A DNA stretch of 64,000 bases from an uncultured Methanoregulaceae archaeon. GTDB taxonomy: Archaea > Halobacteriota > Methanomicrobia > Methanomicrobiales > Methanospirillaceae. The notes beneath the pieces are model-generated. The model made no database searches, was not told the origin of the DNA, and saw nothing but the letters and a program-made list of their open reading frames with translations. How positions within the stretch are numbered: the stretch's first letter is position 1; the number at the start of each line of letters is the position of its first letter. This document shows positions 4,679 through 63,729 of the stretch, piece by piece. The stretch lies in contig OY969564.1 of assembly GCA_963701095.1 (NCBI GenBank), positions 64,001-128,000 on the forward strand. Reading direction: 5' to 3'. A program made the position numbers and the translations under genes.

Positions 4679-4810
4679 TTTGATCTACCCTCCGGGGTGT
4701 AAACTATTGGTCTGCTATGCCATAGCATAACATTATCGTTTTTGATCCGGCAGCATAGTGATCACGGTCAGGGTGAAATGCTATAGGTACCGCCAGCCTA
4801 TAATTGGGCA

Positions 4811-39069: not shown

Positions 39070-39141
39070 AATATAATTGATAAGTTAAATCCCATTGACA
39101 CAACAGCACAATTAAGTGTTATACTATGGGATAGTTTAATT

Positions 39142-42058: not shown

Positions 42059-42595
42059 ATGGAATTCAAGAAAGTCTTCATCAGCGAATTAAAACCTGCG
42101 AAATACAATCCCAGGAAAGACCTTCAGCCAAACGACCCGGAATATCAGCAGATAAAGCGGTCTATCGAAGAGTTCGGGTATGTGGATCCGGTGATTATCA
42201 ACAGCGACAATACGGTTATCGGTGGCCACCAGCGGCTCAAGGTGCTCAAAGAACTTGGCAACGCCCAGATCGATGTCGTCCAGATTGATATTCCCAAAAA
42301 CAAGGAGAAAGCGCTCAACGTCACCCTCAACAAGATTAGCGGCGAGTGGGATATGGACAAGCTCACGTCTCTTCTTGGCGAACTGAAAACGGAAGGGTTG
42401 CTGGATATTACCGGCTTCGATGAAAAAGAGTTCGCGGCATTAAAGGCGAACCTGGAAAAAGTCGATGAACCAAAAGAGGTTCCGTTGAAATCCGCGTTTG
42501 AAGTCATCATCGAATGTCCCAACGAAAGCGAGCAGGAACGAACCTACAATGAGCTCACGGAGGCCGGGTACAAGTGCCGCGTTTTGACATTGTAA
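42059..42595 (+). CDS. ParB/Srx N-terminal domain protein
   Basis: YNPRK, SIEEFG, IGGHQRL, LNKISGEWD motifs. Confidence 0.88.
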   Translation: MEFKKVFISELKPAKYNPRKDLQPNDPEYQQIKRSIEEFGYVDPVIINSDNTVIGGHQRLKVLKELGNAQIDVVQIDIPKNKEKALNVTLNKISGEWDMDKLTSLLGELKTEGLLDITGFDEKEFAALKANLEKVDEPKEVPLKSAFEVIIECPNESEQERTYNELTEAGYKCRVLTL

Positions 42596-43651: not shown

Positions 43652-44103
43652 CCAAGAAGAAACCACCAGCGGCACTCAAGAAACGGGGCCGTAAAAAGAT
43701 CCCGATTGATTACGAAAAAGCGGAGAAATTGGCATCCATAATGTGTACGCAATCAGAAATCGCATCCGTTCTCGGTGTTTCCCTTTCGCAATTGGCTCAC
43801 GATCCCGAATTTTTGCATATCCATAAAAAAGGCATGGAACACGGTAAGGCATCACTGCGCCGTATGCAATATGCCGCTGCGAGTGGTGGAAACCCCACCA
43901 TGCAGATCTGGCTTGGAAAACAGTATCTTGAGCAACGGGATAAGATGGACGTCGAAAACACCATAACAACCGAAGAAGTCCTCGTCCGTGAGCGAGCACT
44001 GATTGAGATAGTCAAGGAGGCTATCCGTGCAGAAGCAGACCCCGAAACTACGCGGAAAATCGTCGCACACATCAAAACCCGCTGCAATCCCGTCAATACG
44101 TGA
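43648..44103 (+). CDS. Terminase small subunit
   Basis: GRKK + HTH (CTQSEIASVLGVS), MQIWLGKQYL; directly upstream of terL. Confidence 0.75.
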   Translation: MTKKKPPAALKKRGRKKIPIDYEKAEKLASIMCTQSEIASVLGVSLSQLAHDPEFLHIHKKGMEHGKASLRRMQYAAASGGNPTMQIWLGKQYLEQRDKMDVENTITTEEVLVRERALIEIVKEAIRAEADPETTRKIVAHIKTRCNPVNT

Positions 44104-45652
44104 TCAACTCAACGATCAGTTCGTCAGCGGTTTTGAACTCGCAAACCCTGTAGTGGATATCCTCACCTTTGCGGAGTCACCGGAGTATCTCGGTCGCAAA
44201 TTGTTTCCATCACAGCAGGAAATCCTCGCCGATTTCTATGACCCCGCGAAACCCTACGAAGAGCTGCTGCTGATTTGCGGCCGTGATTCCACCAAGACGT
44301 TCATGGTCAGTATCATTGCCGCATATACCGCCTATCTGTGGCTGGAGATCCCGGACCCGTATTATCTCTACCAGGGACGGGTCGACCGCGGCAAAGAAGT
44401 CCACATCATCTGCCTTGCGGTCAAGAGCGAACAGGCTACCATTCTGCTGGATGAAATCAAGGCGAAGATTAACACGAGTCCCTATTTCTCCGATAAAATC
44501 GTGTCAATGAACAATTTCGAGATTGTCCTCAACAAGAACCTCCACATCATCGCTGCAACCTCTAACAGTGCGTCCGAGGTCGGGAAGACAGCCATTCTTG
44601 TCCTGTTCGATGAGATAGGAAAATACGGGCAGGAACAGGGTACTAGAGACGGTGAAGAAGTCTATGACAGTCTCACTCCCTCCGTGGGCCGGTTTGCGTC
44701 TAATAGACCGGAGTTCCTGAAACGGTGTGCCGGGGATGCAGGTCTCGAGCGGATTGTCCGGTTCCTGGGCCGGGTTGTGTCGATGTCAACCCCGATGGGA
44801 AAACAGGGTATTCTCTGGCGGATTTACCAGACTGCTTTACGGATGCCCGAGGGTATCCGCATGTACCACCGGCCGACCTGGGAGATGAACCCGAATTACC
44901 CCATAGGGTGTGCGTATCTCGAAGAACAGAAGAAAAAGAATCCGGCGGCGTTTAACCGCGAATATGGCGCGGAATTCGATGAGGCAGTCGATGCCATGTT
45001 TCCCCGTGAGATTGTTGATCGCAACAGCCGGGCATCATCTCCCACGTACGATTACCAGATGGAATATATCGGCGTCCTCGATACGAGCAAACACAAAGAC
45101 GCCTTCGGGTTCGCTATCGGCCACCTGCTTGGGGGGCGGGTCGTCATCGACGTGATAAAGTATTTCTTCCCGGATAAAGGCGTACTGAACTGGAACCACG
45201 TCACAAACGAGATTATACAAATATGCCGCCGATATAGGGTCGATCACCTCCTACACGATGGGTACGAAGGGGAAGCCGTCAAACTGTATTTCAACAACTT
45301 CCTGCTGACAGAAACACCGTTTTCCGGCCAGTATAAGATGCAGATTTACTCGTCACTTGAAGACCGGATGTACCAGAACCAGATCGAGTACCCGGCCGAA
45401 TCCCGGCTGCTTGCGGAGCTCAAAGCGATCCAGAAGAAATGGAACGGCGACAAGTTCACGATCCATCACCCGGACAGCGGGCCGGTAACCACGGATGAAG
45501 GCCCCGACCTGATCGCCAATCTCTCGTATTTCCTGTTTACCCGATTTGTGAAAACCCGGGAGGGTCTCGATGACAGCCGGCCGTCCGGGTGGCCCGATGA
45601 TGATAACGAGGATTGTATTGCATTTATCGCCGGCGGACAGGTGCACTGTTGA
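44027..45652 (+). CDS. Terminase large subunit
   Basis: GRDSTKT Walker A-like, VLFDE Walker B, MSTP, FNREYGAEF, RNase H-like C-terminus. Confidence 0.85.
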   Translation: MQKQTPKLRGKSSHTSKPAAIPSIRDQLNDQFVSGFELANPVVDILTFAESPEYLGRKLFPSQQEILADFYDPAKPYEELLLICGRDSTKTFMVSIIAAYTAYLWLEIPDPYYLYQGRVDRGKEVHIICLAVKSEQATILLDEIKAKINTSPYFSDKIVSMNNFEIVLNKNLHIIAATSNSASEVGKTAILVLFDEIGKYGQEQGTRDGEEVYDSLTPSVGRFASNRPEFLKRCAGDAGLERIVRFLGRVVSMSTPMGKQGILWRIYQTALRMPEGIRMYHRPTWEMNPNYPIGCAYLEEQKKKNPAAFNREYGAEFDEAVDAMFPREIVDRNSRASSPTYDYQMEYIGVLDTSKHKDAFGFAIGHLLGGRVVIDVIKYFFPDKGVLNWNHVTNEIIQICRRYRVDHLLHDGYEGEAVKLYFNNFLLTETPFSGQYKMQIYSSLEDRMYQNQIEYPAESRLLAELKAIQKKWNGDKFTIHHPDSGPVTTDEGPDLIANLSYFLFTRFVKTREGLDDSRPSGWPDDDNEDCIAFIAGGQVHC

Positions 45653-46978: not shown

Positions 46979-48752
46979 TGGTGAAGCGTCCGGCAAATGC
47001 TCCCTTTGATCCTCTGGAGGGTATCGAGCATTTCTCCGGGATCGCCATGGGTGCAGCCTATACCATCCCCGACTTTGGTCCCAACGGCCGGGCATTGAAC
47101 GGCCAGGAATACATCAACAAAGCCCTGGACTCTGATGTGTACGGCGGCCGGAAAATCACCTATTTCAACAAATACGACCGTCTCCAGCAGCTCGAACAAA
47201 TTAATTCAAGACTGGGCATCGGCCTGATCAAGCTCGGCTTCAAACTCCGTGGCCCGGAATTCAAACTGTTCTGCGACCAGGCCGCCGGACTTACCAACGA
47301 ACAGCAGACCTCAATTCTCCAGGACGCGAACAATTTTACGACCAATCTTGATCTCCAGAACCAGTTTGCTGCTGCAGGCCGGCTACTTGCCCGTGACGGC
47401 ACTGTTCCGATCCTTAACAGTGCGGATGCCCGGTTTGGCAATGGGGAGGGTATTACAACCCTTGACTATATGCCGATGAGCCATACCACGATCCTCCCTA
47501 TCGATGCAGAACCTATGACCGCATTCCAGAACGAGGAACAGCTCTGGGAATATGGCACACTCACGGGTGAAGCGTACCAGGTTATTATTAACGAACGCAT
47601 CCAGGCTAAACGCGAAATCCACCTGATCCCGAATGGCCGGGTTACCCTCATGCGGCTGATGCATTTCGGTAACCAGGTCCGTGACATTTACAACCGCAAC
47701 ACGATCGGTCTCTACGGTATCAGCCTTGCCGAGATGATTGATCCCCGCGTCAAGCAACTCGAAGATATGATGTGGGGTTTTTCAAAAGCAATCAACCGGT
47801 ATGGGTATGGCAGGCTCCAGATCGACAACGACCTCCTGAAACAACAGATCGTTGAAGGGACGATGAACCTCAAACAGGCTACGAAGATCATGGCCACGGA
47901 ACAGAAAATCATGAATACCCTGGAGCCCAACCGTGACCTCCTGACCATTGGTAAGACGGTGAAGGCTATCCCGGCGGGTTTGAGAATGCTTCCGGTGTTA
48001 TCGAGATGATCGAGGCCGTCCAGAACGATATCTCGTATGGCCTGTTCGAGACGGAAGCCGGAGGCAACCGGACTCATTCCGGTTCGAACCGGGCGTCGTC
48101 CCAAATATCTGACCAGGATGCCAACCGGGTCCTTGAAGCACTGCGGCTCCAGGTCAAGGTCGGCTTTGAGTCCATCATCAAACGGCACCTTGAACTGCTC
48201 GGATATAACGAGGTTGAAGCCCAGTCTATCCGGATTGAACTGCAGCCCATTGATACGCCTATCGCAGATCTCCAGGTGCTTTTGAATATCGCCGCGATGG
48301 ATCCGAAGGCACTCTCAATGGGACAGGCTATTGAAATGGCCGGCCTGCACATTCCTCCACGGCAGACGGTTGATTTTGAAGAGGATCAAACGATCCAGAG
48401 CGATGATCAGAATCCTCCGGCTGTTGCAATGCCTCCAGGGAAAGGTGCGTCGATGACGATGTTCGGAGCCAAGATCGATGTACGGCCGGGTGAGTCTATC
48501 CAGGCCGCATACAAACGTAAGACAAAACAGGAACTATTCGCAGCGGTCAAAAAGTGGAAAGGAGAAAATAAGAAAATTCCTCTGCCTGCCTCAAAGACCG
48601 GTGAGTGGCGGCTGATCTTCGGCCGGTATATTAACGTGAAGGAGGGCGATGACGAAGCGGCATGCTATCTCACGCAAACCCTCCGGAACTACGACGATGA
48701 TGCCGAAGCTTGGGAGCAGGAATTACGGCGGGTAAAGGAGGGAAAGAAATGA
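46978..48752 (+). CDS. Portal protein (frameshift near 47973)
   Basis: Position between terL and protease; ARDG and YGIS motifs; frames join as AIPGGFENASGVIEMIEAV. Confidence 0.7.
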
Positions 48753-48887
48753 GATTTTCCACAGCATGCATTAGCCATTATCAAATAAGAAAATATATCG
48801 TTATTAGGATGAAATGAGGGGATATGCTTCCTGAAAATCCCAAAGAAATGTTAAAAAGAATCGATGGGGCAGTGAAAAGCGGGAGAA

Positions 48888-51152
48888 TTAGGTTAGTTTT
48901 TTTAGTGCGATTTCCCGATTCTGTTTCGCGATGGCATAATCTGGTTTAATGGCTAGGGCTTTGTCAAAAGATGCAATTGCATCATTAAGTCTACCAAGAC
49001 CACTGAGCGCGACTCCGCGGGTATCCCACACCAAGGCATAATTTGGGTTAAGATTGATTGCGTTGTCACATGAGGTAAGGGCTTCTGTATACCGACCGAG
49101 ATTATTCAGAGCATCCCCTCGGTTGTTCCACGCATCTGGGCTTTTTGGGTAGATTGCAATCGCTTTGTCATAAGAGGCGAGTGCTTCCGAATACCGACCG
49201 AGCATCCCTAGCAAGACTCCACGATTGTACCACACCAGAACATAATTTGGATAGATATCAATTGCCTTGTCATATGAGTCAAGTGCTTCCCTATTTCGGC
49301 CGAGCTTACGTAGTATAATCCCGCGATTGCCCCACGCTTCTGCGATATTAGGGTTGATGGCAATTGCCTTGTCATATGAGTCAAGTGCTTCTGTATGCCG
49401 ACCGAGATTTTTCAGAATATCTCCGCGATTGCCCCACGCTTCTGCGATATTGGGGTTGATGGCAATTGCCTTGTCATATGAGTCAAGTGCTTCTGTATGC
49501 CGACCGAGAATCCCTGACAAGACTCCATGGTTGTAACACGCATCAATGTCTTTGGGGTTTATCGCAAGGATTTTATCATAACATTCTATTGCTTTCTGGA
49601 AGTCCTTCAGATCAGAAAACATTTTTCCCTTGTTTCTCCATACAAGAGCCTCCCTTGGATTTATTTCGAGAGATTTATCATAACATTCTATTCCTTTCTG
49701 AAATTCTCCAAGATTATCTAAAGATTTACCTTTGGCTCCCCATGCTCTATCGTTTCTCGGGTCTATCTCAAGGGCTTTATCAAAACATTTAATTGCTTCC
49801 AGATTTTTCTTCAAAAAGGAAAGAATACCGCCTTTATTAATCCATGAATCAGCCATTCTTGGATCTAACTCAAGCGCTTTATCATAACATTCAAGTGCTT
49901 CATGGACGTTTCCCAGACAACGAAGAGCATATCCTTTATTACTCCAACCAAGAGGATCTTTTGGATTTATTTCAAGAGCTTTGTTGTAGCATTTAATTGC
50001 TTCTGGGTATTTCTTGAGATTATCAAGATTTATGCCCATTTCATACCATATACCGGCCACATTTGGATTTATGTCGAGAGCTTTTTCACAACATTCAATT
50101 GCCTCTTGATATTTTCCTAGATTACTAAATGCGACCGCTTTACTTAGCCAATTAGATCCTGTTAAACTCTGGTCTTCTTCAAAAACAACGTATTTTTCTT
50201 TAAAAAGGATATTATAGAGTGATATTAACTCATTTTTCAAGTCATTAAAATCTGAATATCTATTATCTGGATTTCTCTCAATACATTTCATAATCAATGT
50301 ATCCAGTTGTTCCGGTATCTCAGGATTCAAACTCTTAGGTCGTTCCGGTGTTTTTTCAAAGATCTCATTTAGATCATGGAAGGGTAGTTTTCCTGTTAGC
50401 AACACATAAAGTGTCAATCCAAAAGAATAGATGTCAGATCTCGTTGTCACTGGTCCCTTAAAAGAAAATTTATCTTGAATGTTCCTAGGGAACTGTTCCG
50501 GTGGCATAAATATAGGTGTTCCAATGCCATTTGAGACGTTTATGGAATCCCCCAGCATTTGATCACCCAATACTTTTACCAATCCAAAATCTGTGATTTT
50601 AAAAGAATACCTGGATATAAATCTTGGATCTTGTCGCAGCAATACATTGGTGGGTTTAATATCGCGGTGAATTATCCCATATTTGTGATAGACGTAATCC
50701 ATCCCTGTACAAAATTGAATGGCAAAGTCCATAGCGTTCTTAATATCAATTTTACCAATAAATCGGTCTAGATCTCCTCCGGGGACATATTCTAAAAACA
50801 GTAAAGGTTTACCTTCGACTATTCGAATTGTATTTGCAAAAACAATGTTTGCATGGTGCTCAATTGCAATCCAGACCTCTGCTTCCGCCATGAATCTTTG
50901 GATTGCATTATTATCCCAGAGAAATTTATCCTGAAAAGTTTTAATAGCAATAAGTCCATTCGATTGTAGCTCACGAGCGATATAAACAACACCCATGCCG
51001 CCTTTTTTTATATCAACAATTTCGTAGAGATTCGAAATTTTATAACCTTTCTCCCAAGGTTTCACGGTGGGATGTAAAATATACGTGTTGGGGTTATTGT
51101 TTAAATCAGAGTCATTCTCTGGATTTATTCTAAAATTATAAAGAAATCCCAT
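48888..51152 (-). CDS. Hanks-type Ser/Thr kinase with 12 TPR repeats
   Basis: GGMGVVY, AIK, HRDIKPTN, DFG, PPE, SDIYSFG; 34-aa repeats. Confidence 0.93.
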   Translation of the reverse strand: MGFLYNFRINPENDSDLNNNPNTYILHPTVKPWEKGYKISNLYEIVDIKKGGMGVVYIARELQSNGLIAIKTFQDKFLWDNNAIQRFMAEAEVWIAIEHHANIVFANTIRIVEGKPLLFLEYVPGGDLDRFIGKIDIKNAMDFAIQFCTGMDYVYHKYGIIHRDIKPTNVLLRQDPRFISRYSFKITDFGLVKVLGDQMLGDSINVSNGIGTPIFMPPEQFPRNIQDKFSFKGPVTTRSDIYSFGLTLYVLLTGKLPFHDLNEIFEKTPERPKSLNPEIPEQLDTLIMKCIERNPDNRYSDFNDLKNELISLYNILFKEKYVVFEEDQSLTGSNWLSKAVAFSNLGKYQEAIECCEKALDINPNVAGIWYEMGINLDNLKKYPEAIKCYNKALEINPKDPLGWSNKGYALRCLGNVHEALECYDKALELDPRMADSWINKGGILSFLKKNLEAIKCFDKALEIDPRNDRAWGAKGKSLDNLGEFQKGIECYDKSLEINPREALVWRNKGKMFSDLKDFQKAIECYDKILAINPKDIDACYNHGVLSGILGRHTEALDSYDKAIAINPNIAEAWGNRGDILKNLGRHTEALDSYDKAIAINPNIAEAWGNRGIILRKLGRNREALDSYDKAIDIYPNYVLVWYNRGVLLGMLGRYSEALASYDKAIAIYPKSPDAWNNRGDALNNLGRYTEALTSCDNAINLNPNYALVWDTRGVALSGLGRLNDAIASFDKALAIKPDYAIAKQNREIALKKLT
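49261..49500. repeat. Near-identical 102-bp TPR-coding tandem repeats
   Basis: ATTGCCTTGTCATATGAGTCAAGTGCTTC at 49261, 49363 and 49465. Confidence 0.9.
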
Positions 51153-51338
51153 TATATACTCAAATTTTCATTCTATTTTTTACCTTTATAAGGTTTTTCG
51201 ACTTTTAACATTTTGTACGAAACCTCAACTAATTTTCACCTTAAAAGTGAAGATAAAATGAAAGGTTAGGCAAAATGAATTTATTGTTGTTCACCTGGCT
51301 AAATTTAAAATATTAGTTTAATGGATCCCTTTGCCGTA

Positions 51339-52154
51339 TTAATTTCCAACCATAATAGTTCCATTTTGTTGTTTCACCATCTTTGCCATTTCTGGGTTTA
51401 AACGATATAATTGATTATAAGCATCAAGAAATTCTTTATCGCGGTTTAAATTTTTGAGAGCTGATGCTTTGTTATACCACGCGAAGGTGTCATTTGGATT
51501 TAATTGAATGGCTCTGTCGCATGCAATGAGAGATTCATCATAACGCTTCAGAAAAACAAGGATGCCGCCCCTGTTATGCCATGCAGATGCATCATTTGGA
51601 TTTAATTGAATGGCTCTGTCGCATGCAATGAGAGCTTCTTCCTGACGCTTCAGAAGAAAAAGGACACCGCCTTTCTTCCACCATGAGGTTGCATTATTTG
51701 GAGTGAATTGTAGAGCTTGGTCATGCGCATTCAAAGCTTCTTCAAATTGTTTAAGTACATGACTAAAGATGGCTGCCTTCTCTTGCCACGCAATCAATGC
51801 ATGATCATTATCGGGATTTAATTGAAGGACTCGATTATATGAGTCTAGAGCTTCTTCATGCCGGTTCAAATTATTGAGGATATACCCTCTCATGCACCAT
51901 GAGTCCGTATCATTTGGGTTTAGGTTAAGGGCGTGGTCATATGCCACCAGGCTCCCTTCGTAGCGTTTTAAATCAATAAGCATTCGTCCTTTAAATTTCC
52001 ATAAATCTGATGATTCTGGCTTTAATTGAATCGCCACATCACAAGCAGTAAAGGCATCTAAAAATAATCCCATATTATAGTTTTTAAAGGCAGCATCCAT
52101 CCATTGATTGGCATTTTTTCCCTCAATTGTTTTCTCGGTTGAAGAAAAAACCAT
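51339..52154 (-). CDS. TPR-only protein
   Basis: About seven TPRs; identical 42-bp blocks at 51491 and 51593. Confidence 0.88.
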   Translation of the reverse strand: MVFSSTEKTIEGKNANQWMDAAFKNYNMGLFLDAFTACDVAIQLKPESSDLWKFKGRMLIDLKRYEGSLVAYDHALNLNPNDTDSWCMRGYILNNLNRHEEALDSYNRVLQLNPDNDHALIAWQEKAAIFSHVLKQFEEALNAHDQALQFTPNNATSWWKKGGVLFLLKRQEEALIACDRAIQLNPNDASAWHNRGGILVFLKRYDESLIACDRAIQLNPNDTFAWYNKASALKNLNRDKEFLDAYNQLYRLNPEMAKMVKQQNGTIMVGN

Positions 52155-52463
52155 TATTATCAATCCTATTGTAAATTTGTAACATCTTAATACTTTATTT
52201 AAAAAAACCTAAACAAGGGTGTTCTTTTCTATCCAACATCATCTTATATTCCGTGCAGTACTGCCACTGGATCGCGCTTCAAGGCATTAAGTAAAATCAA
52301 ATCGGGGTACAATTTATCTTATGATTTTTGTCAGAGTTTTTCTGGAAAACAAATTGCCACATGGAATTTTAATTAATATCTATCTTGCGGACTTTGTGTG
52401 GCACATACCTTTTATTATTTAATTCTCAATATACCATATAATTATTAAAAGATGGTGACGTAA

Positions 52464-52889
52464 ATGGGCGTTGTAGTTGAAATTCTAAAGAAAGTAAGAG
52501 ATCCGCTTAATCTCTTATACATGGCAATGCCACGAGTTTCGATGAAACCAATTGGTGGTGGACGTGCAACGTCTACAGAATATGTACCGGATCAACTTGT
52601 ATTTGATGTTCATATATGGAATGACCGAGTGCAACTTTTCAAGGTCGGTGGCGGGATAAATCTCCAGTCATCAAATCTTGCAGTACGAATGATGGTAGAA
52701 CAATTATATCCAATGTATGTCAATATCAGAGAAGTTTGTGATATTGGAGATATAGATGAAATAGAAAAACGTGGGCGGGAATTATCAGATACCGATGATC
52801 CAACCCCATATACAACCGCATTTAACGAGTTTGTAAAATTAAAAGAACGTAGAATCAAAGATTTCGAAGCAGGTGATATACAAGGATAA
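52464..52889 (+). CDS. Hypothetical protein
   Basis: 141-aa ORF with GGTGA RBS, divergent from the TPR gene. Confidence 0.65.
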   Translation: MGVVVEILKKVRDPLNLLYMAMPRVSMKPIGGGRATSTEYVPDQLVFDVHIWNDRVQLFKVGGGINLQSSNLAVRMMVEQLYPMYVNIREVCDIGDIDEIEKRGRELSDTDDPTPYTTAFNEFVKLKERRIKDFEAGDIQG

Positions 52890-53190
52890 CAAACCCAAAT
52901 CCGATAATACCATTTAATTTTGCACTTGCTATCCCCAGTGATGTGATACGGAATTGAATATTTTTTGAGAACCGGGTATTTTCGTTGTGCTATGCGCCAT
53001 AAGCTATGGCGGATATTCTGCCGTCCCTTATGTCCTCGTTCCCATGAGTTTTATATATAGCATAAGATGTACTGACAATTATCCAGTTGACTTTGGACTA
53101 TCTGGCAGCAACATCTTACAATCCGGGCAATCAGTTCCCATACTAAAAGAACAAATAAAGATTAAGTTGATGAAATAGTGGGGAAATAAT

Positions 53191-53240
53191 ATGATAACGC
53201 ACTGTTATAGGTGTGGACACTATACTTTATTGAATTCATG
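53191..53240 (+). pseudogene. 5' fragment of a Zn-finger/TPR gene split by the transposon
   Basis: MITHCYRCGHYTLLNS joins in frame to CPIYPG after 57760. Confidence 0.8.
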
Positions 53241-53372
53241 GGCTTTGCACGTAAACTCGCTTCTGCACGTAAAGTATGAGACTTGCACGTAAAGTGGCGT
53301 ATAGGTAATTTTTAATAAATTTGAACCGATCAATTTGAAAATACTAATAGGAATGAATGGAGAACAACTAGT

Positions 53373-53738
53373 ATGAGCAAAAGGAAAAAGAACGCTATCA
53401 ACGATGATGGAACTGGCGAGTTCCCCTCAAGTGGCGGAGGAATAAGATTGTTTGGGGCGACATCAAGGCATGACTATGAGTTTTTAATAATGGATGGTAT
53501 TAAAAAAGGATTTACTACCACGCCAGAACTTCACAAATTTATAGAGGCTGGATTTAAAGACAAATTTAACGAGATAGATACATCATTTGTTACAATTTAC
53601 TCTACTCGTTGGCAAAAAAACGTTGATTGGAAAAAATATCTTATGAAAAACGATGGTTTAATTGAACAAGATGGGAAACAACTTTCGTTGACTGCTGAGG
53701 GAGTTGCCCGTTATTTACATTTGAGAAAGAATAGATAA
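53373..53738 (+). CDS. Stand-alone Mrr-N-like winged-helix protein
   Basis: RWQKNVDW...MKNDGLIE......LTAEG. Confidence 0.55.
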   Translation: MSKRKKNAINDDGTGEFPSSGGGIRLFGATSRHDYEFLIMDGIKKGFTTTPELHKFIEAGFKDKFNEIDTSFVTIYSTRWQKNVDWKKYLMKNDGLIEQDGKQLSLTAEGVARYLHLRKNR

Positions 53739-53748
53739 TGTAATTTCT

Positions 53749-54705
53749 TTAAAGGCTGCTCAACCAATTGCAGAGAGAGGCGAGTTGATCGGCATCGGTC
53801 ATATTTGCAGCATTTTTCAATGTTTCATTTTGAATCCGTTCCCATATTTCATCTGCCATACGTTGAGATATTGCAGCGGCGATAAAACATATTTCCGGGA
53901 ACGAATCCTCACGAGAAAATTTAGAGCGAATGTCACTCAATGCAGATCGCGTTGTTTTCCAACGTTCATCTGCACCTGCTGGATCGATACCGCCTTTCAA
54001 TTCACCTAATGCAAGAAACAGGGCAGGTGCTTTTTTTGCCCGAGGCAATTCTTCCCGTGAACATTTTATTAAATTAATATCAACATTTTTACCAACTAAC
54101 GGGATTCTAACGTCATAAATCAATGTTCTGTTTTGCCCGTTTTTCATCCAATTCAATCCCTTTACAAGAGGAGTAATATTCGCATCGTTGACATTGGTAT
54201 TTGGGGCGCGCGCCCACTTATCTGTATCACGATTGCACCAATAAAACGGAACACCCGCATTCCTTAAAGACGCTATAACTGCACTGGATACACGTTGTCG
54301 TGCCCAATATCCGACGATGTTGTTCATTGAACCCGCCAAGCTTCCGCCACTAATTAACAAAAAGCGAAATACCAACTCTTCAACAAAATTATTACCGGCC
54401 GGTTCAAGATATTCTCTGATCAATCCTTCGATAGCGGCTGTTTTTGCTTCTTCGGGAATGTTTCCCATGCTTTTATCAGATATTCCAGAAGCGGTGATCA
54501 ATGCGCTCCGTATCCCTCCAATCCCAATCAATTCTTGAGCAGTTCGGACTGTTGATGCTGTAGATTTCAACTGTCGTGCCTCTTCTATATATGGAGAGGC
54601 AATACGACTTTTTTCAAGCGCTTGAGCTACAAACGCAGCCCTGATTTCTTCACGGGTGGTTATAAGACTGGCCGCATTCGGCAAATGAGGTAGATTTGGT
54701 GGCAT
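53749..54705 (-). CDS. Type II restriction endonuclease, AvaI/BsoBI family
   Basis: KNVD and GELKGGIDPAGADE.WKT motifs. Confidence 0.88.
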   Translation of the reverse strand: MPPNLPHLPNAASLITTREEIRAAFVAQALEKSRIASPYIEEARQLKSTASTVRTAQELIGIGGIRSALITASGISDKSMGNIPEEAKTAAIEGLIREYLEPAGNNFVEELVFRFLLISGGSLAGSMNNIVGYWARQRVSSAVIASLRNAGVPFYWCNRDTDKWARAPNTNVNDANITPLVKGLNWMKNGQNRTLIYDVRIPLVGKNVDINLIKCSREELPRAKKAPALFLALGELKGGIDPAGADERWKTTRSALSDIRSKFSREDSFPEICFIAAAISQRMADEIWERIQNETLKNAANMTDADQLASLCNWLSSL

Positions 54706-54746
54706 GATTAAATCTTATTTATGCCACAGTAAAATAAAAAATCATC

Positions 54747-56156
54747 TTATACTTTTTTCCAGCAATAGACACATTTTCTCAATGATGTTCGTCCGTGGGT
54801 TCCCATTTGCTGACTACTATTCCCTTTCCCCGTAGGAAGAACCAATATTTTTTCCACTTTAAACCCAAGATTCTCTGCAATACTCGACAAGATGGTATCA
54901 ACGGAAATATTGACCCCGGCATATCTCACATTGTCGTTTACCATGAACATGTATCCATCAGGTTTTAAAACACGGTGGCACTCTTTGATCACACATGCCA
55001 TCTCATAGAAATATCCACGAACCATACGAGGAATACCGGTGTTATTTAATTTATCCTGCTTTTTCAAATCTTCCAAATATCTCAATATCTCTTGCAAAAC
55101 CTCTTGGTCGTCGGTTATTTTTATGGCGTCTTTCCAGTCAGAATTCATTAAAATGAGATCCTTTGCACGATTCTCAACCGTGCAACTAATCATTTTCTGT
55201 CTCAAATCCCGCAATTTGTATTCATCGGTTCCAAGTAACGCCAGTTCTAGCGCGTATGTTCTCGTATAATCATACCGATTACAGTACGGCGGAGAGGTGA
55301 TAATAGTCTTATATGTGTCATCTTTTAACGTTTGCAAAATTTCAAGACACGATCCCTCATGAAGTATGATATCTCCATTCAGTATTGGCGATGATAGTTC
55401 TATACTAGGTGCAGTGTCAGTAATTATTTCGTTGAGTTTTTCGGTGATGGCACCACCGAATTCCAATATCGTTCCTTTATCAAACACGTTAGAATTTAGT
55501 TGCCCTCTGCCTGATCTTTGATCCCATCGAAGATATTGCCCATCTTTCCGAGTGTAACTGATTGATTCCAGAATACAAAGAAGTGCAAATTTTAAAACAA
55601 ACTGCACTCTTTTATTTTCTTTTGATAGCACATGCAGATAATTTTCTATCGCCAATTGTGTTTCTGGGGGGTACGCATTGTTTGTTATTTTTAATGCAAT
55701 GAATGGAGTTCTTTCCTGTGTTTTTATCCACGGCTTATTTTTTATCCACCGAAGAATTGTTTCACGATCTTTTTTCGTGAACTTTTGTTCCAAGCAGATT
55801 TTAGTCGTTATTATCTGATGTCCAATAGGAAGGAGTTCGATCCCATCCGCATCTAACCCCAATGCACTTGCGGTAAATAATGCAGTCCCACTCCCAGCAA
55901 ACGGATCTAACAATCTCCCCGACCGGATTCTATATTTCTTAAGGAGGTATTCTACGAGAGAGGCCGAAAACGCTTCCTTAAATTTATACCATCTGTAAAC
56001 AGGGCGCTTTTTATTATCTTGGAAACTTACGATCTGACGAGTTAGTTTTTTATCAATTATGATATTGTGTTGAAAATGATTTTCCAATAAGTGATCCATG
56101 TCGTCAATACGAGATATTGATTCTTTTTCTGAAAGAATTCCCATAAGTTCTACCAT
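54747..56156 (-). CDS. DNA methyltransferase (probably m4C), cognate of the REase
   Basis: DPFAGSGT precedes TSPPY; adjacent to the REase. Confidence 0.9.
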   Translation of the reverse strand: MVELMGILSEKESISRIDDMDHLLENHFQHNIIIDKKLTRQIVSFQDNKKRPVYRWYKFKEAFSASLVEYLLKKYRIRSGRLLDPFAGSGTALFTASALGLDADGIELLPIGHQIITTKICLEQKFTKKDRETILRWIKNKPWIKTQERTPFIALKITNNAYPPETQLAIENYLHVLSKENKRVQFVLKFALLCILESISYTRKDGQYLRWDQRSGRGQLNSNVFDKGTILEFGGAITEKLNEIITDTAPSIELSSPILNGDIILHEGSCLEILQTLKDDTYKTIITSPPYCNRYDYTRTYALELALLGTDEYKLRDLRQKMISCTVENRAKDLILMNSDWKDAIKITDDQEVLQEILRYLEDLKKQDKLNNTGIPRMVRGYFYEMACVIKECHRVLKPDGYMFMVNDNVRYAGVNISVDTILSSIAENLGFKVEKILVLPTGKGNSSQQMGTHGRTSLRKCVYCWKKV

Positions 56157-56184
56157 GATTACAACGGCTCTATTAATACGCCTT

Positions 56185-56346
56185 TCATTTTCTTATTCGT
56201 TCCCGATCCCAATACGGGGACTTACATTTCGGATTCGGGCATACCTTCGGGAGTTTGTCCGGGTCTTTGGGATACCATTCGTGCCCACATCTAAGGCACG
56301 TCAATTTCTGATTAATCTCTTTACCGCAATGAGGACATCTCGCCAT
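56185..56346 (-). CDS. 53-aa zinc-finger microprotein
   Basis: MARCPHCGKEINQKLTCLRCGHEWYPKDPDKLPKVCPNPKCKSPYWDRERIRK; GAGGTG RBS; missed by the ORF track. Confidence 0.8.
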   Translation of the reverse strand: MARCPHCGKEINQKLTCLRCGHEWYPKDPDKLPKVCPNPKCKSPYWDRERIRK

Positions 56347-56387
56347 AAAGTAACACCTCTACTGATTGATATAACTTAATCATCCAA

Positions 56388-56451
56388 AGTATATATTCCT
56401 GCCGGTATGTATCCCCTTCGGTATGTATACCGTTAGGTATATATCCCTTAA
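56388..56451. repeat. Four 16-bp-period operator-like repeats
   Basis: Units start AGTATATATTCC, GGTATGTATCCC, GGTATGTATACC, GGTATATATCCC at 56388, 56404, 56420, 56436. Confidence 0.75.
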
Positions 56452-56475
56452 GGGACATAGTATAGGTAGTGAATT

Positions 56476-57717
56476 GTGATGACACAAACCCACGAACCCC
56501 TAACCACCAGCCGCGAAAAGAGGGGGCGAGCAATCGCAGAAAAGAGCGGTCAGATCCAGAAAGTCAAAGATAACCAGTACAAGGTAAGGTCACAGTCCGG
56601 CAACGGTTCCTATGAAATCAAAATCGGCAAGAATGGGGCCGAATGCAGTTGCCCGGATTTCCAGACCCGGCACCTGCCCTGCAAGCATATTCTCGGACTT
56701 CGCTATTACCTAGAAGTGCAGAAGGACACCCCCGAAGGCACTGTAACCGAAAAGGTACGTCTGACTTATTCCCAAGCGTGGAGCGCGTACAATGCTGCAC
56801 AGATCGAAGAAATCAAAATCTTCGATGCTCTGTTGAAGGATTTAGTAAAAGCAATCCCTGAGCCGGAACAGAAGATGGGGCGCCCACGCATACCGATGAG
56901 TGAAAACCTGTTCTGTGCTATTCAGAAGGTTTACTCTCAGTTATCCAGCCGTCGCGCTCACAGCCTCTTCCAGAATGCGGTAGAAAAGAAGCAGATCGAT
57001 CACGCGCCTTACTTCAATGCACCATCGGCCCTGTTCAACAAGCCCGAAATAACACCTATCCTTCAGGAGTTAGTCACGCTATCAGCGTTACCCGTTGCTG
57101 AGCTTGAAACAGACTTTGCGATTGACTCCACGGGATTCCGGACTACAACCTTTAGCGAATACTGTGGAATGAAACACGGGCAGAAGAAGGCTCACCGATG
57201 GATCAAGGCACACATGGCAACCGGCATTAAGACCAACATCGTTACCTGCATCGAAGTCACCGCTGGGAACGCCCACGATTCCACGCAATTCAAGCCCCTC
57301 GTTAAAGACATCTCAATGAATTTTAATATCCATGAAATTTCCGCCGACAAAGCTTACTCATCCCGTGACAATTACGAGGCCGTGAACGCAGTCGGTGGAA
57401 CTGCGTATATTCCGTTCAAGAGCCACGCAACTGGTAAGACTCGTGGTTCCCCCATCTGGAAAAAGATGTACCACTATTTCCAACTGAACAAGGATGAGTT
57501 CATGGAGCACTATCACAAGCGAAGTAACACTGAGTCAACCAACGCGGCCATCAAAAGGAAATTTGGGGAGACACTGAAATCGAAAAACCAGACCGCTCAG
57601 ATCAATGAACTTCTAGCAAAGATTATCGCCTACAATCTGACGGTAGTAATTCATGAGATGTATGAGAATGGGATCTCGCCAGACTTCCTGCACGTAAAGT
57701 CCGGAGCCTGCACGTAA
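56476..57717 (+). CDS. DDE transposase (IS5/IS903-like) with N-terminal SWIM zinc finger
   Basis: CSCPDF...CKH; AIDSTG, ADKAY, YHKRSNTES...K. Confidence 0.9.
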   Translation: MMTQTHEPLTTSREKRGRAIAEKSGQIQKVKDNQYKVRSQSGNGSYEIKIGKNGAECSCPDFQTRHLPCKHILGLRYYLEVQKDTPEGTVTEKVRLTYSQAWSAYNAAQIEEIKIFDALLKDLVKAIPEPEQKMGRPRIPMSENLFCAIQKVYSQLSSRRAHSLFQNAVEKKQIDHAPYFNAPSALFNKPEITPILQELVTLSALPVAELETDFAIDSTGFRTTTFSEYCGMKHGQKKAHRWIKAHMATGIKTNIVTCIEVTAGNAHDSTQFKPLVKDISMNFNIHEISADKAYSSRDNYEAVNAVGGTAYIPFKSHATGKTRGSPIWKKMYHYFQLNKDEFMEHYHKRSNTESTNAAIKRKFGETLKSKNQTAQINELLAKIIAYNLTVVIHEMYENGISPDFLHVKSGACT

Positions 57718-58550
57718 TGTCGGGTCAAATCCCTACTTTACGTGCAAAGCCGAATTCATGCCCCATTTATCCAGGTCTGACAAAAGGCTCTTTTGAAATT
57801 ACGGGTGAAAAACAATTATGTAAATCTTGCATGAGTAAAATTTTTGATGATATCCATGCGAAAGAGGTAGCAGATATTTCAATTTGTATGAAAGAGAAAA
57901 GGTTTGATGATGCTATTAAAATTTTTCAATCTATTTTCAATAACGAATCTGATAAAAACTGGTATAATCTTGGGAATTTGTACTACAATAAATTACAACT
58001 TTCTGACGCATTAGATTGTTATGATAATGCATTGTTCTTGAATACACATTACATAAAAGCATGGTATAGGAAGGGGACAATATTGTATAGCATATCAAAA
58101 CTTCAAGATGTTGAAAAACTCAAAGATTCTGCACAATGCTTTAAGAATATTCTCCTTTTAGATCCGAAAAATAAATATGGGTGGAACAATGCATCTACAT
58201 TTTTTATTGCATTATGCAGCATTTCTATTCATAATCGTTTTTTTCAAGACGGTAGCGATACAACACAAACAAACCAAGAAGTTCAAAAATGGGTTTCATT
58301 AAATCTAAATAATAAATATCCCAAAGATCTCGCAAGCGATCTTAAAAATCACCTTACTGGAAAGGCGGGTCGAGAACTTCTTAATGGACTTATTGATTGG
58401 TGGTTTTTAAATCATAAAAAAATATTGGATGCTCTTGAACCAAAAATTGGAGATATTAATCTTTATCCTGATGAAAGTAATGCCATAGAAAGAGTTTACG
58501 TTACGGCCGAAAACGCGAAGATTCCTGATAATTTCTCTAAAAAAATCTGA
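57717..58550 (+). CDS. TPR protein, 3' part of the interrupted gene with a transposon-supplied start
   Basis: WYNLGN...ALDCYDNAL TPRs; first 12 codons derive from the transposon end. Confidence 0.75.
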   Translation: MSGQIPTLRAKPNSCPIYPGLTKGSFEITGEKQLCKSCMSKIFDDIHAKEVADISICMKEKRFDDAIKIFQSIFNNESDKNWYNLGNLYYNKLQLSDALDCYDNALFLNTHYIKAWYRKGTILYSISKLQDVEKLKDSAQCFKNILLLDPKNKYGWNNASTFFIALCSISIHNRFFQDGSDTTQTNQEVQKWVSLNLNNKYPKDLASDLKNHLTGKAGRELLNGLIDWWFLNHKKILDALEPKIGDINLYPDESNAIERVYVTAENAKIPDNFSKKI

Positions 58551-58553
58551 AAT

Positions 58554-58902
58554 TCAATATTTTAATGAGGGTAATGAGTTTACCAAAGACGGTCAATATG
58601 CAGATGCTGTTGCATCATATGACAAGGTGCTTGCAATCAATCCGATAATTATAGGGCATGGAGCAAACGACGATAGGCTCTGTGTAATCTCGGTCGATAT
58701 TCAGAAGCGGCTGAATCTGATAAAAAATAGTTTATTATTTTTCATTTCTCATGAAGCTGAATTAGGAATGTTACCTGAAGAGATGGAATTTGGTATAACT
58801 ACAGATCCCTGTGTCAGACCTTTTATCATAGCATTTGCCATTAATCCAAATTCTGCAGGAGCGAAACAGAATCTAGAAATTGCGCTCAAAAAGATAACCT
58901 GA
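58554..58902 (+). pseudogene. Degenerate TPR gene
   Basis: GQYADAVASYDKVLAINP, then broken frames, ending AKQNLEIALKKIT. Confidence 0.65.
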
Positions 58903-58994
58903 TTTATACCTCGATGGGCAAGGACAGTTCTGTCAAGTCTTCTGTATAATTTCTTTTTACCTTTATAATTTTTCAATAAAAATCCCGTCTCCAG

Positions 58995-60389
58995 ATGCCG
59001 GAGATACCCCTGCTCGGTTCGCTGCAATCTTACACAGTAGCCGCCGCTGCTGATGGTGCACTCCTCGCACAAGGCCCTCTTTTCACCGCAAACAAGATCA
59101 ACAAAAACGGCTGGGGTATTCCCGAAGATGAAGCAGAGCATTTCGCCGCCTCGTTTACGGGAATGCCAATCCGGTATTGTCCGAAAGGGGTAGATACCGT
59201 TGCCAAAGACGGATCGCCGATTCCTGCCGCTCACTACTGCGACGCCATAAACAGCAGCCGAACGATTGTCGGGAACATTGAAAGCGTCTATCCGGTGGGA
59301 AAAGATGCCGATGATCGGACGATCTACGACATGAAAGCCCGGATTACAGACCCGAAGACCGTCAACGGCATTAAGGATGGCACCATCCCCGCGAGCTGGA
59401 GCCTGTGGGCATACGCCATAAAAGAATCCAACGACGGCATGATGCGGGGATGTCAGGGAAAGAGTGCAAGCATCGTCAGCGATCCGGCATACGCTGAGGC
59501 CCGGTTCCAGTGGCAGGCAATCGCAGCCTCCGCCGCTCCGGACCTTTGGAGCAGGGGTATCTACGAACAAGGAGCCAGAATGGCCGACGACAAACCAGAA
59601 AACCAGACAACGCTACCCGGGGTTACCCCAGTGGCAGCGGCTACCGGCGGTATCACCCAGGTATTCAACCTGGGCGCTGCTGCATCCGGTGATGGAACGA
59701 CCGATGGAAAAGAAAGTGCCGATGACCCCAAACCCGCCGAGAACAACGCAGTCTGTGCGAAATGCAAAGAACCCCTCCCGGCCTCTGCCAAGTTCTGCCC
59801 GGCGTGTGGCACATCGCTCCATGCTTCCTGCTCGAACTGTTCATCAACCATACCCCCGGGTGCGAAGTTCTGCCCGGCGTGTGGAAACCCGGCAGCTGCT
59901 CCTGATGGCAATATGAACACCACAGTTGGTGACAACTCCGTTGCTGCCTCACTGGTTGATAAGCTCGTTGAACAGAAACTCGCCGCCCGGCTCGACCAGG
60001 AAAAACGCCAGTCCCTTGCAGCCTCAATTGCACAGGTACAGGTCAAGACCGGCGTCCTCCAGCCGGCAGACACCGAGAAACGCATCGTTGAACTCATTGC
60101 ACTCCCGGCAGCAACCCTCGAAACCGAACTCAACAACTACTGCATGATCGCTGACAAACTCGGCAAACCGGTAGAGCAGGGTATGCGAAGCGGCCAGATC
60201 CCCGCTGCAGCAGCGTCAACCAATAATGGACTGCCGAAGATCCCCATGCCGGCCAATTACCGGGCAATCCTGAAACAGGCGCTCGGTATCGATGGCAGAG
60301 GCATGACAGATGCAGATATCCTCAAGTATGGCATTGCGAGGACTCCCGCCGGGGTCTGGCAGGGTTCGTACCATTCCAGCGAGGGATAA
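58995..60389 (+). CDS. Prohead protease/scaffold with double zinc ribbon
   Basis: NKNGW, H, WS and SIVSDPAY protease-like motifs; four CxxC pairs; upstream of the capsid genes. Confidence 0.75.
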   Translation: MPEIPLLGSLQSYTVAAAADGALLAQGPLFTANKINKNGWGIPEDEAEHFAASFTGMPIRYCPKGVDTVAKDGSPIPAAHYCDAINSSRTIVGNIESVYPVGKDADDRTIYDMKARITDPKTVNGIKDGTIPASWSLWAYAIKESNDGMMRGCQGKSASIVSDPAYAEARFQWQAIAASAAPDLWSRGIYEQGARMADDKPENQTTLPGVTPVAAATGGITQVFNLGAAASGDGTTDGKESADDPKPAENNAVCAKCKEPLPASAKFCPACGTSLHASCSNCSSTIPPGAKFCPACGNPAAAPDGNMNTTVGDNSVAASLVDKLVEQKLAARLDQEKRQSLAASIAQVQVKTGVLQPADTEKRIVELIALPAATLETELNNYCMIADKLGKPVEQGMRSGQIPAAAASTNNGLPKIPMPANYRAILKQALGIDGRGMTDADILKYGIARTPAGVWQGSYHSSEG

Positions 60390-61293: not shown

Positions 61294-62277
61294 ATGCCCG
61301 TTGGTTTATCCGATCTTTATCCCGAATTTACGCAGCTCCTGATCCAGACCCAGTTTTTCCGGATTTACGATATCTATGTACCTGACGATTACGGCCTGTT
61401 TACGCAGGTAGTCCCCTCCACCAAAGAAGCCGAAGTCTACCCGACGATGGGTGCAGTTCCGCAGATGTCGCTTTTTGAAGGGGAACGGAAATTCTCCGGT
61501 ATCGGGAACAAACAGACCTTCATGGTCTTCAACAAGTCCTTCGATACCGGCATCAAGATCCCCCTGACAGTCTTCCAGGACGACCAGTACGGGATCCTGA
61601 CCCAGAAGATCGCCGAGCTTGCCATGGAAGGAAAACGGTTGCCCGTTTCCCTCGTGTACAGTGTCCTCCACAACGGAGCCCAGACCAGCGGGTCCAACTA
61701 TCAGGCCGGTTTTGACGGTCTCCCGCTCTATTCCCAGGACCACCAGGGTGTCGGTTCGGCATTCCAGAGCAATATGCTTGGCGGCACGAACACGCTCAAC
61801 GCTACAAACCTTCAGGAAGTCATCGCAAACATGCGGACCCTGACCGACCAGACCGGCAGGCCGCTGGGGATTATCCCGGACACGCTCATCGTTCCACCAA
61901 TGCTTGAGATTCCCGCCAAGCAGCTACTCCACTCGGCATTCTTCATGTCGGTTGGCACCGCTTCATCGCAGAACACCACCGCGTCAACCCCCGCTGGCGT
62001 CTACAATATCCCAACCAGCAACGAGTTCGGCGGTATCCTGAAGAAAATCATTGTCAACGAATACCTCACGAGCCCGTCCGAATGGCATGTTGCCTGTACC
62101 GGAAGGATGACCAAACCGGTTTTGCTCCAAGAGCGACAGGCACCAATGCTGACGGTCAAGATGGACCCGAACACCAGCGACGACGTGATGAAGGAAAACA
62201 ATGCGTTTGCCTCCATCTATGCACGGTGGGGAGCTGCCCCCGGCAACTGGATGACCGTCTACCAGGGAAGCTCCTGA
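61294..62277 (+). CDS. Major capsid protein, Mu gpT-like
   Basis: VPST..E.Y..MG.VP.M..F.GER, DDQYG, FDG.P.YS.DH, PDTLIVPP.LE motifs. Confidence 0.88.
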   Translation: MPVGLSDLYPEFTQLLIQTQFFRIYDIYVPDDYGLFTQVVPSTKEAEVYPTMGAVPQMSLFEGERKFSGIGNKQTFMVFNKSFDTGIKIPLTVFQDDQYGILTQKIAELAMEGKRLPVSLVYSVLHNGAQTSGSNYQAGFDGLPLYSQDHQGVGSAFQSNMLGGTNTLNATNLQEVIANMRTLTDQTGRPLGIIPDTLIVPPMLEIPAKQLLHSAFFMSVGTASSQNTTASTPAGVYNIPTSNEFGGILKKIIVNEYLTSPSEWHVACTGRMTKPVLLQERQAPMLTVKMDPNTSDDVMKENNAFASIYARWGAAPGNWMTVYQGSS

Positions 62278-63333: not shown

Positions 63334-63729
63334 ATAACCGCCGAACTCGAAGGGCTGGAAGAGTGCATGGCTGGTTTACAGGATGCCCTTGATCAGGTTC
63401 ATGCAAGTTCCGGAAACGCTGCCATGCAGGGTGGTCTTGCGTATGTTGCCGATGTGAAAGCCCTCGCACCAGTCAAGAACGGTGAGTACCGGGACGGGAT
63501 CTCCTGCAAACCTTCTCCGGATGGTGATGGTTCCGTTATCGTCGGGTCTCCCGATCCTTTCTCCCGGCGGCTTGAGTACGGGTTCTACGATATGACCGAT
63601 TCTCTCGGCCGGCACTTTTTCCAAGAGCCCCGCCCGCATTTCCGACCGCCACTCGACACCGAGATGGACAGATATCTGGCGATCATGGCCGGCACTATTG
63701 CAAAAGAAGCTTTCGGGGATGATGGGTGA
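63334..63729 (+). CDS. HK97 gp10-like neck/tail completion protein
   Basis: APVKNGEYRDGI, LEYG, PRPHFRP; first ATG is 63367 but the frame extends to ATA 63334. Confidence 0.75.
   Translation: MTAELEGLEECMAGLQDALDQVHASSGNAAMQGGLAYVADVKALAPVKNGEYRDGISCKPSPDGDGSVIVGSPDPFSRRLEYGFYDMTDSLGRHFFQEPRPHFRPPLDTEMDRYLAIMAGTIAKEAFGDDG

Follow-up and report, generated by a model that had tools for sequence, protein, structure and literature searches.

The window analysed here, 64,000 nucleotides of the contig OY969564.1 (positions 64,001 to 128,000) from an uncultured Methanoregulaceae archaeon, contains at 53241-57751 an element of 4511 bp. With a probability of roughly nine in ten, we read it as a real, complete and recently mobile unit transposon that is related to the insertion sequence (IS) IS903, carries a restriction-modification (RM) operon of the BsoBI/AvaI type and sits in a gene of a provirus island. 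The 4.5 kb, with all their cargo, move as one unit, since a near-identical element is found elsewhere with exact breaks into different flanking DNA.

The sequence reading and a repeat search of the window agree on the limits of the element. Its terminal inverted repeats are 15 nt long and 100% complementary (GGCTTTGCACGTAAA; arms 53241-53255 and 57737-57751), and a 9-bp target-site duplication, GAATTCATG, lies directly outside both arms (53232-53240 and 57752-57760). An earlier note on this DNA, made from the letters alone, had described these perfect repeats and this duplication, and both are borne out; the span that it gave, 53232..57760, is that of the element plus both duplication copies, the element proper being 53241-57751. 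In the whole genome, a single contig of 2,625,686 bases, the 15-mer end was found once per strand with at most one mismatch, both times at the element termini, while the reversed pattern, used as a control, gave 0 matches. The genome likewise contains one full-length copy of the transposase. The element has five genes, one of them for a transposase, and is laid out with its surroundings as follows.

53191-53240, plus strand: 5' piece of an interrupted Zn-ribbon/TPR gene, 16 codons from the ATG, with a CxxC (frame reading)
53232-53240, no strand: left copy of the target-site duplication, identical to 57752-57760
53241-53295, plus strand: left end, with the terminal inverted repeat at 53241-53255 and forward copies of a 12-nt motif (TGCACGTAAAGT-like) from 53246, 53264 and 53284
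53373-53738, plus strand: stand-alone Mrr_N-like winged-helix cargo gene, 121 amino acids (aa), a lead only, from feature and structure clusters of the Atlas
53749-54705, minus strand: cargo gene for an AvaI/BsoBI-family type II restriction endonuclease, 318 aa (PF09194, 1DC1)
54747-56156, minus strand: cargo gene for a type II DNA methyltransferase, 469 aa (PF01555, PDLC03224, TSPPY motif)
56185-56346, minus strand: backbone gene for a Zn-ribbon protein, 53 aa (CxxC...W...CxxxxCKSPYW), heading the leftward string of Zn-ribbon, methyltransferase and endonuclease genes
56347-56475, no strand: divergent control region, 129 nt, with three repeats of the GGTAT(G/A)TAT type (GGTATGTAT-type)
56476-57717, plus strand: transposase gene, 413 aa, SWIM zinc finger at the N-terminus plus a DDE_Tnp_1 catalytic domain
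57689-57751, minus strand: right end, with the 12-nt motif forward from 57689 and 57709 and an inverted copy (57735-57746) in the terminal inverted repeat at 57737-57751
57752-57760, no strand: right copy of the target-site duplication, identical to 53232-53240
57761-58550, plus strand: 3' piece of the interrupted Zn-ribbon/TPR gene, with a second CxxC and then TPR repeats (TPR_1)

Movement of the whole unit is seen in public metagenomes. Part of the stretch occurs in 20 runs, four of which (X1, X2, X6 and X9) were compared in detail. X1, possibly the source sample, covers the whole stretch. Three other studies supplied X2 (freshwater), X6 (lake water) and X9 (permafrost), in which coverage is confined to 53241-57751 and the depth on both flanks is zero; these run depths are word-depths of contigs, from which no conclusion on copy number can be drawn. 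The listed pieces in these three runs differ from the window by 0-15 letters each, for instance 8 in 1375 and 2 in 777 (~99% identity). Contig matches end exactly at 53241 (X6, X9) and at 57752 (X2, and also X1 in a second context), and then continue into four unrelated flanks. An element ~99% identical is therefore present in soil, freshwater, lake and permafrost metagenomes, and the near-identical copies in other flanks in three other studies support the recent movement proposed in the earlier note.

The transposase combines a SWIM domain (PF04434) with a DDE_Tnp_1 domain (PF01609, E 1.2e-24), and this single SWIM-DDE enzyme is the carrier of the cargo, as the earlier note had it. In an alignment of 24 transposases, with 40-85% identity to the enzyme of the window, residues C57, C59, C69, H71, D217, D291 and E353 are invariant, and all 64 invariant columns are intact in the window copy. 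An AlphaFold model (mean pLDDT 78.2) has a DDE-transposase fold and, among PDB entries, comes closest to the ISCth4 transposase (E 1e-6); a sequence search of the PDB with the transposase gave no match. Among 72,556 plasmids, the best matches were the transposases of IS903 and IS903B, with 22-26% identity across residues 84-387. Relatives are numerous (4758 at E<=0.001 in 8000 scored candidates), the named ones being IS5-family transposases of Methanoregula, Methanothrix and others.

The relatives show which parts of the element are constant. When the window is compared with L006, L008 and L010, whose transposases are 80-94% identical, nucleotides 1-55 and the segment from the transposase start to the right end are common to all, and the rest is unrelated. 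For a wider view, related loci were delimited by GGCTTTG at both ends (at most one mismatch), agreement in no fewer than 11 of 20 end positions and a duplication of 9 bp (at most one mismatch). Of 80 genome loci 21 passed (1802-6285 bp), and of 102 loci from viral or metagenome contigs 32 (2479-6531 bp); with L111 (the same as L110) and L128 (at the site of L127) dropped and the window added, the set comprises 52 elements. A scan of viral contigs with a single transposase protein returned no loci, and an alignment-based scan of viral contigs returned 23.

Both ends of the element contain three copies of the 12-nt motif. Those on the left are at +6, +24 and +44; on the right, the copies at -63 and -43 keep the left orientation and the one at -17 is inverted. 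Of the 52 elements, 39 have two or more left copies and 26 have all three; the right arrangement -63, -43, -17 is found in 22, and a terminal copy with at least one right subterminal copy in 37. The interiors of the elements, 188,791 nt in all, contain only 21 matches to the motif. The motif varies by lineage (TGCACGTAAAGT, TGCTAATAAAGT, TGCCCGAAAAGT and TGTTTAATAAGT are examples), and the copies within one element agree with one another. Such a joint change of the motif within an element is what would be expected of co-evolution with the DNA-binding part of the transposase, a part that the SWIM region may provide.

In the model that we favour, the transposase would bind the three copies of the 12-nt motif at each end, cut at the GGCTTTG termini and insert the element through a cut staggered by 9 bp, a chemistry proposed by analogy with that of IS903 and other DDE enzymes. 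The stretch that separates the 55-nt left end from the transposase gene is an exchangeable cargo slot, filled here by the leftward genes for the Zn-ribbon protein, an N4/N6-type methyltransferase and a BsoBI/AvaI-type endonuclease, plus the Mrr_N-like DNA-binding gene. The RM pair would protect the carrier cell from incoming DNA and stabilise the element as an addiction module, and the Zn-ribbon protein would regulate the divergent promoter region. We infer the activity and specificity of the RM pair, the role of the Zn-ribbon protein and a benefit to the virus.

The presence of RM cargo, also proposed in the earlier note, is confirmed by both genes. The endonuclease matches PF09194 (E 1.5e-110) and, over its full length, BsoBI (1DC1, E 5.6e-86), and it keeps D209, E235 and K237. 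The methyltransferase belongs to PF01555, matches the PADLOC model MTase_II PDLC03224 (E 6e-163) and contains the motif TSPPY in its translation. BsoBI recognizes the sequence CYCGRG. As in the BsoBI/AvaI systems, a full-length endonuclease with the Asp, Glu and Lys residues adjoins an SPPY-type DNA methyltransferase; the system of the window differs from them in that an Arg replaces the conserved His (His253 of BsoBI), and in lying on a transposon, with a Zn-ribbon gene before it and an Mrr_N-like gene alongside. The 121-aa Mrr_N-like protein had no match in Pfam, NCBIfam or PADLOC. In the Atlas both its features (0.91, with 186 shared) and its structure (TM 0.69-0.74) join it to clusters of Mrr_N, and its assignment to Mrr_N is a lead, not a proven identity.

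The earlier note had counted four passengers. Three of them, the Mrr_N-like gene, the endonuclease and the methyltransferase, are indeed cargo. The Zn finger is not: in 38 of the 166 related loci with enough upstream sequence, a divergent gene for a Zn-ribbon protein lies 120-205 nt ahead of the transposase gene, and since the same slot recurs beside unrelated cargo, the gene is classed as a backbone accessory gene and not as a passenger. Its neighbours vary, being RM genes, genes of the toxin-antitoxin type or cargo of no assigned kind. Translated in all six frames, those sources contain the signature CxxC..W...C(2-4)CKSxYW 41 times, and in L007 and L013 a DUF7557 protein occupies the Zn-ribbon slot. 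A search of the Atlas with the Zn-ribbon protein returned unnamed clusters only. The protein is probably regulatory. Palindromes resembling GGTATATATACC recur in the divergent region of the relatives L022, L155, L041 and L051, and these palindromes and repeats would presumably have a function in control.

The family is large, mostly archaeal by the labels of its hosts and nearly always equipped with cargo, with almost no bare IS among its delimited members. The host labels include Methanoregulaceae, Methanotrichaceae, Methanosarcinales, Methanocellaceae, Micrarchaeota, Altiarchaeota and others, further Woese-, Pace-, Nano- and Aenigmatarchaeota, and a few metagenome-assembled genomes labelled bacterial. 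In a looser test that does not require the right end, a left-end signature was found in 94 of the 182 loci, at least 1.2 kb from the transposase gene in 83 of them and within 600 nt in 6. Ends immediately flanking the transposase gene, which would have spoken against a cargo carrier, are therefore rare (at most 6 of 94). In the two smallest, L063 (1802 bp) and L028 (2326 bp), no extra open reading frame (ORF) longer than 95 aa would fit.

According to Pfam and PADLOC, DNA methyltransferase or RM genes are present in 21 of the 52 elements; L131 was counted as a 22nd carrier, presumably of the same kind, since it has the 4154 bp and the 819-aa ORF of the type IIG element L127. L127 and L131 are the same 4154-bp element at two different sites. 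The census of ends, duplications and cargo suggested in the earlier note thus gives 52 delimited elements, 22 of them with DNA methyltransferase or RM genes, one by that reasoning. The RM cargo ranges over type IIP systems, type IIG enzymes that have or lack an S subunit, and C5, N4/N6 and D12 enzymes with HNH or other nucleases, and includes one GmrSD-like gene. Four elements (L124, L130, L143 and L150) have genes for ClpP-like SDH serine proteases (PF01972) in the RM slot, single elements encode ParE, PIN, NYN, DUF488 or EVE domains, and the remainder carry cargo without family assignment. When PADLOC was run on 26 unexplained cargo proteins, three were named: a type II restriction endonuclease in L065, a weak type IIG match in L059 and a Csa3/CARF-like helix-turn-helix (HTH) protein in L052. 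A pair of proteins of ~450 aa and ~340 aa, the latter with a winged HTH of the AsnC type, recurs in L008 (4245-6621) and L158 (4193-6567) with 43-44% identity, the transposases of these two elements having 90% and 68% identity to that of the window; it is a candidate for a new defence or addiction pair. One family member of 5.8 kb, L022, has an IS630-type transposase gene (DDE_3 and HTH; 3837-4975) nested in type I-like RM cargo.

The insertion sites of the family share a precise TATA-like target motif. At 37 of 52 sites, a W-T-W-W-A-A-A heptamer with at least 6 of 7 positions matching occupies precisely -13 to -7, counted from the duplication on one side, a figure somewhat inflated because the pattern was derived from the same sites. 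It is on the left in 26 cases, on the right in 13 and on both sides in 2. At random positions of the same loci the heptamer was found at 2.6% of 16,200, and at shifted offsets there were 16 matches at -2, 16 at -1, 14 at +1 and at most 7 at any other. The ends of two elements abut at 11 places, 6 of them with a gap of exactly 9 nt, and some of these junctions join different members of the family; the 9-nt gaps indicate repeated insertion into one and the same target. The abutting ends with a 9-nt gap are those of L167, L182, L035, L043, L045 and L061.

This target choice could have a more specific meaning. The family might aim at archaeal promoters and insert past the TATA box but ahead of the transcription start, which would have the cargo driven by promoters of the host. 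The fixed position of the heptamer, set against its rarity at random positions, speaks in favour of this proposal, as does the tendency of the sites to avoid coding sequence: 16 of 30 are outside all ORFs of at least 100 aa, compared with 12% of 2040 random positions, and five more fall within the first 30 codons. However, a gene start was found 0-60 nt downstream of the heptamer at only 7 of 25 sites, against 36.5% in a control that is crude, since internal in-frame starts count in it, and this gives promoters no support. The derivation of the pattern from the sites themselves, and the insertion of the window copy into coding sequence at a site matching 4 of 7 positions, also tell against it. 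Promoter targeting is thus a tentative idea, which we consider somewhat more likely to be wrong than right. A different mode of movement was suggested by one X6 contig, in which 8 letters separate 57751 from 53240. This head-to-tail joint, with its spacer of 8 to 9 nt, could be a circular intermediate, and the family would then move by copy-out/paste-in and not by the cut-and-paste of IS903; the spacer has the length of the duplication, as at circle junctions of copy-out IS families, and ISCth4, the best fold match, is an IS256-family enzyme. The contig has 56 nt on its shorter side and is the whole of the X6 evidence, and 9-nt gaps recur among the 11 end-to-end junctions in genomes and metagenome contigs, several of which join different family members (for example L182 and L167), something impossible for a circle. 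Re-insertion into the same 9-bp target accounts for the X6 joint better, and a circle seems unlikely.

The reading of the element as a complete, recently mobile RM transposon has points against it, which are best weighed together. Residue 248 of the endonuclease, at the position of BsoBI His253, which we take to be the proposed general base, is an Arg in the window and in P0122, and a His in 26 of 28 aligned relatives; because of this replacement, the cleavage activity is uncertain. The transposase score of 136.6 bits with NF033579 (IS5 family), in itself a sign of kinship to IS903, is slightly short of the curated cut-off of 140. The target of the window copy matches the heptamer at 4 of 7 positions on either side and lies in coding sequence. 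The evidence from the runs consists of assembled contigs, not reads, and absence elsewhere proves nothing; even in X1 the junctions are bridged thinly, by 10 nt on the left and 29 nt on the right. Of the 182 related loci 130 were not delimited, many being on short contigs, and the cargo statistics rest on the delimitable subset. Finally, the genome has one copy only, and a DNA search with 51300-59000 detected no empty-site allele in 40 relatives, the search returning TPR-repeat matches and one unrelated 234-nt match. For both these reasons activity in this host is uncertain. It might accordingly be argued that the element is a dead relic, in which the transposase or the endonuclease is inactive and which persists as an orphan methyltransferase locus riding the provirus. 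The change from His to Arg at an almost invariant position, the single copy with no polymorphism detected in this host and the non-canonical target site would all fit. But the ends are perfect, 64 of 64 invariant transposase columns are intact, and copies in four studies differ by no more than ~1% yet occupy different sites. Moreover, P0122 (labelled Nanoarchaeota), the closest relative of the endonuclease with 74% identity, has the same Arg and keeps all other invariant residues, which points to selection and not to decay; the Arg-bearing endonucleases of the window and P0122 may form a functionally distinct subclade. A dead relic is therefore improbable. Far less credible still is a native origin of the RM genes in the viral island, with an ordinary IS and its stray matching end as mere neighbours and the 4.5 kb not being one unit. 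RM genes are frequent in prophage accessory islands, and the single copy in this genome would agree with such an origin. Against it, contigs of three other studies hold the ends, the Mrr_N-like gene, the endonuclease, methyltransferase, Zn-ribbon and transposase genes and no flanks, the 9-bp duplication brackets the whole unit, and taking out the full 4511 bp reunites the split host gene.

Three other classes of element were ruled out. A composite transposon does not agree with the one transposase gene, nor with relatives that have just the 55-nt left end in common; a Tn3-type transposon would have a resolvase and a target duplication of another length; and a domesticated transposase in a defence operon does not agree with the intact ends, the duplication and the occurrence of the unit in other flanks.

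Members of the IS903 group of the IS5 family are ~1 kb long, with simple repeats, GGC ends, a 9-bp duplication and a sole transposase gene of ~300 aa. The element has the DDE_Tnp_1/IS5-type transposase, the 9-bp duplication and the GGCTTTG ends of this group, and lacks its ~1-kb single-gene length, its simple repeats and its ~300-aa transposase free of extra domains. The reference copy of IS903 (L086, on a Klebsiella plasmid, 1057 bp) shares the GGCTTTG terminus, the 9-bp duplication (ACCTTTCGA in IS903) and the DDE_Tnp_1 transposase, and its end, GGCTTTGTTGAATAAATC, is resembled even more closely by the ends of the DPANN-type relatives, GGCTTTGTTTAATAAGT. These ends and duplication, together with the plasmid matches to IS903 and IS903B, uphold the earlier description of the element as IS903-like. 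IS903 itself has one gene and simple inverted repeats, without SWIM, repeated 12-nt end motifs or cargo, whereas the element has 4511 bp, four further genes, three motif copies per end in an asymmetric layout and a transposase of 22-26% identity, with ~100 more N-terminal residues including the SWIM finger.

Passenger genes within its own inverted repeats, a single transposase and the occurrence of the unit in other flanks make the element a transporter IS (tIS) or unit transposon; in the definition of the ISfinder authors, as given in PMC9330008, a tIS has a single transposase and passenger genes between its own inverted repeats. In the literature searched, tIS are occasional derivatives of a bare IS, whereas in the lineage of the element cargo is the rule (83 of 94 loci with at least 1.2 kb extra) and is dominated by RM. 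Furuta et al. 2010 (PMC2853133) describe two transposon-like RM units of bacteria, which have 8-bp duplications but no transposase that is clearly active, and state that no archaeal RM system survived their screen for mobile RM. These units resemble the element in having RM genes within inverted repeats and a short target duplication; the element differs in its intact transposase and in belonging to a large, mostly archaeal family. Tn7-like transposons (Benler et al. 2021, PMC8649781) share with the family a defence-rich cargo, but they use TnsA, B, C and others, are far larger and are targeted by attachment sites or guide RNAs, whereas the element has a single IS-type transposase. A survey of 2019 (PMC6563490) gives cargo-carrying DNA transposons as undetected in archaea. 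A term search of a 2026 survey of archaeal IS (PMC13343696) found passenger, SWIM and IS903 absent, and cargo and restriction in the reference list only. No description of the SWIM-DDE family, and no paper reporting it with such cargo, was found in the literature searched, a scope that excludes ISfinder, TnCentral and most subscription journals.

The element splits the 5' end of a Zn-ribbon/TPR gene. Removal of the element restores one frame of 279 codons, with the insertion site 15-16 codons in. The search for an empty site, proposed in the earlier note, found none at the DNA level, as said above; at the protein level, the congeneric genome G109 (locus L200) has an unbroken homologue of 256 aa, 34% identical and with the same CxxC...CxxC N-terminus. 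A chimeric ORF of 277 aa (57717-58550), whose ATG overlaps the transposase stop, reads through the right end into the truncated TPR gene and may allow expression of an N-terminally altered TPR protein despite the insertion. Just left of the insertion, 234 nt (52882-53115), which partly overlap a 63-aa ORF, have 79% identity to G031, a genome of the same order and another family. Rfam gave no match in 48000-60000 at E<=0.1.

By the integrase, terminase, capsid and connector genes around the island, the carrier is a tailed (Caudoviricetes-type) provirus, and the nesting proposed in the earlier note holds. Upstream of the island lie a tRNA-Glu gene (31864-31938), a tyrosine integrase gene (33038-34108), a ParB-like gene and the terminases (small and large, 43648-45652). 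A double-Zn-ribbon protein, the Mu-gpT-like major head protein (61294-62277) and the connector (63367-63729) are encoded downstream. The accessory island, at ~49-59 kb, has a GC content of 34-45%, against 50-58% on either side, and lies within the head-gene module of the provirus. The tRNA-Glu gene is on the minus strand, ~1.1 kb from the integrase gene, and this region is likely to be the attachment end of the provirus, the other end lying beyond the window. The same island encodes, at 48888-52163, a protein of 754 aa in which a Ser/Thr kinase is fused to many TPR repeats, and also a TPR protein of 274 aa, and its TPR-repeat DNA matches many places in congeneric genomes. Elsewhere in the provirus, a 403-aa DUF4238 protein (39142-40353) lies in an AT-rich patch (31% GC, 39001-40000), which is a candidate for a second accessory insertion. 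Just upstream of the terminases, at 42574-43602, a 342-aa protein combines an ABC-ATPase-like part with a GNAT acetyltransferase domain (phrog_11143, E 5e-89).

Transporter IS elements and RM systems on mobile elements are already known. What appears to be an undescribed variant is the SWIM-DDE lineage with its six-site ends, Zn-ribbon gene, RM-rich cargo slot and TATA-like target. We put forward, as a conjecture with somewhat less than an even chance, that this undescribed, mostly archaeal IS903-related lineage is a general shuttle for RM and other addiction or defence modules, with viruses as its vehicle between cells, so that a transposon would arm a virus with RM. If this is true, the preference for a TATA-like box would let successive elements stack on the same 9 bp. 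The provirus setting offers the lineage a plausible route of spread. How RM systems move between genomes is an old question, largely unanswered for archaea, and the family offers a vehicle defined by its sequence, with exact ends, a duplicated target site, a slot whose cargo can be swapped and a motif by which targets can be recognised. It becomes testable whether archaeal RM systems spread mainly as transposon cargo, whether SWIM reads the end motifs and whether a provirus serves as the intercellular carrier. In addition, because they are seated in a slot that elsewhere holds RM systems, the uncharacterised modules, such as the ~450/340-aa pair and the ClpP-like SDH proteases, are candidates for new defence or addiction systems.

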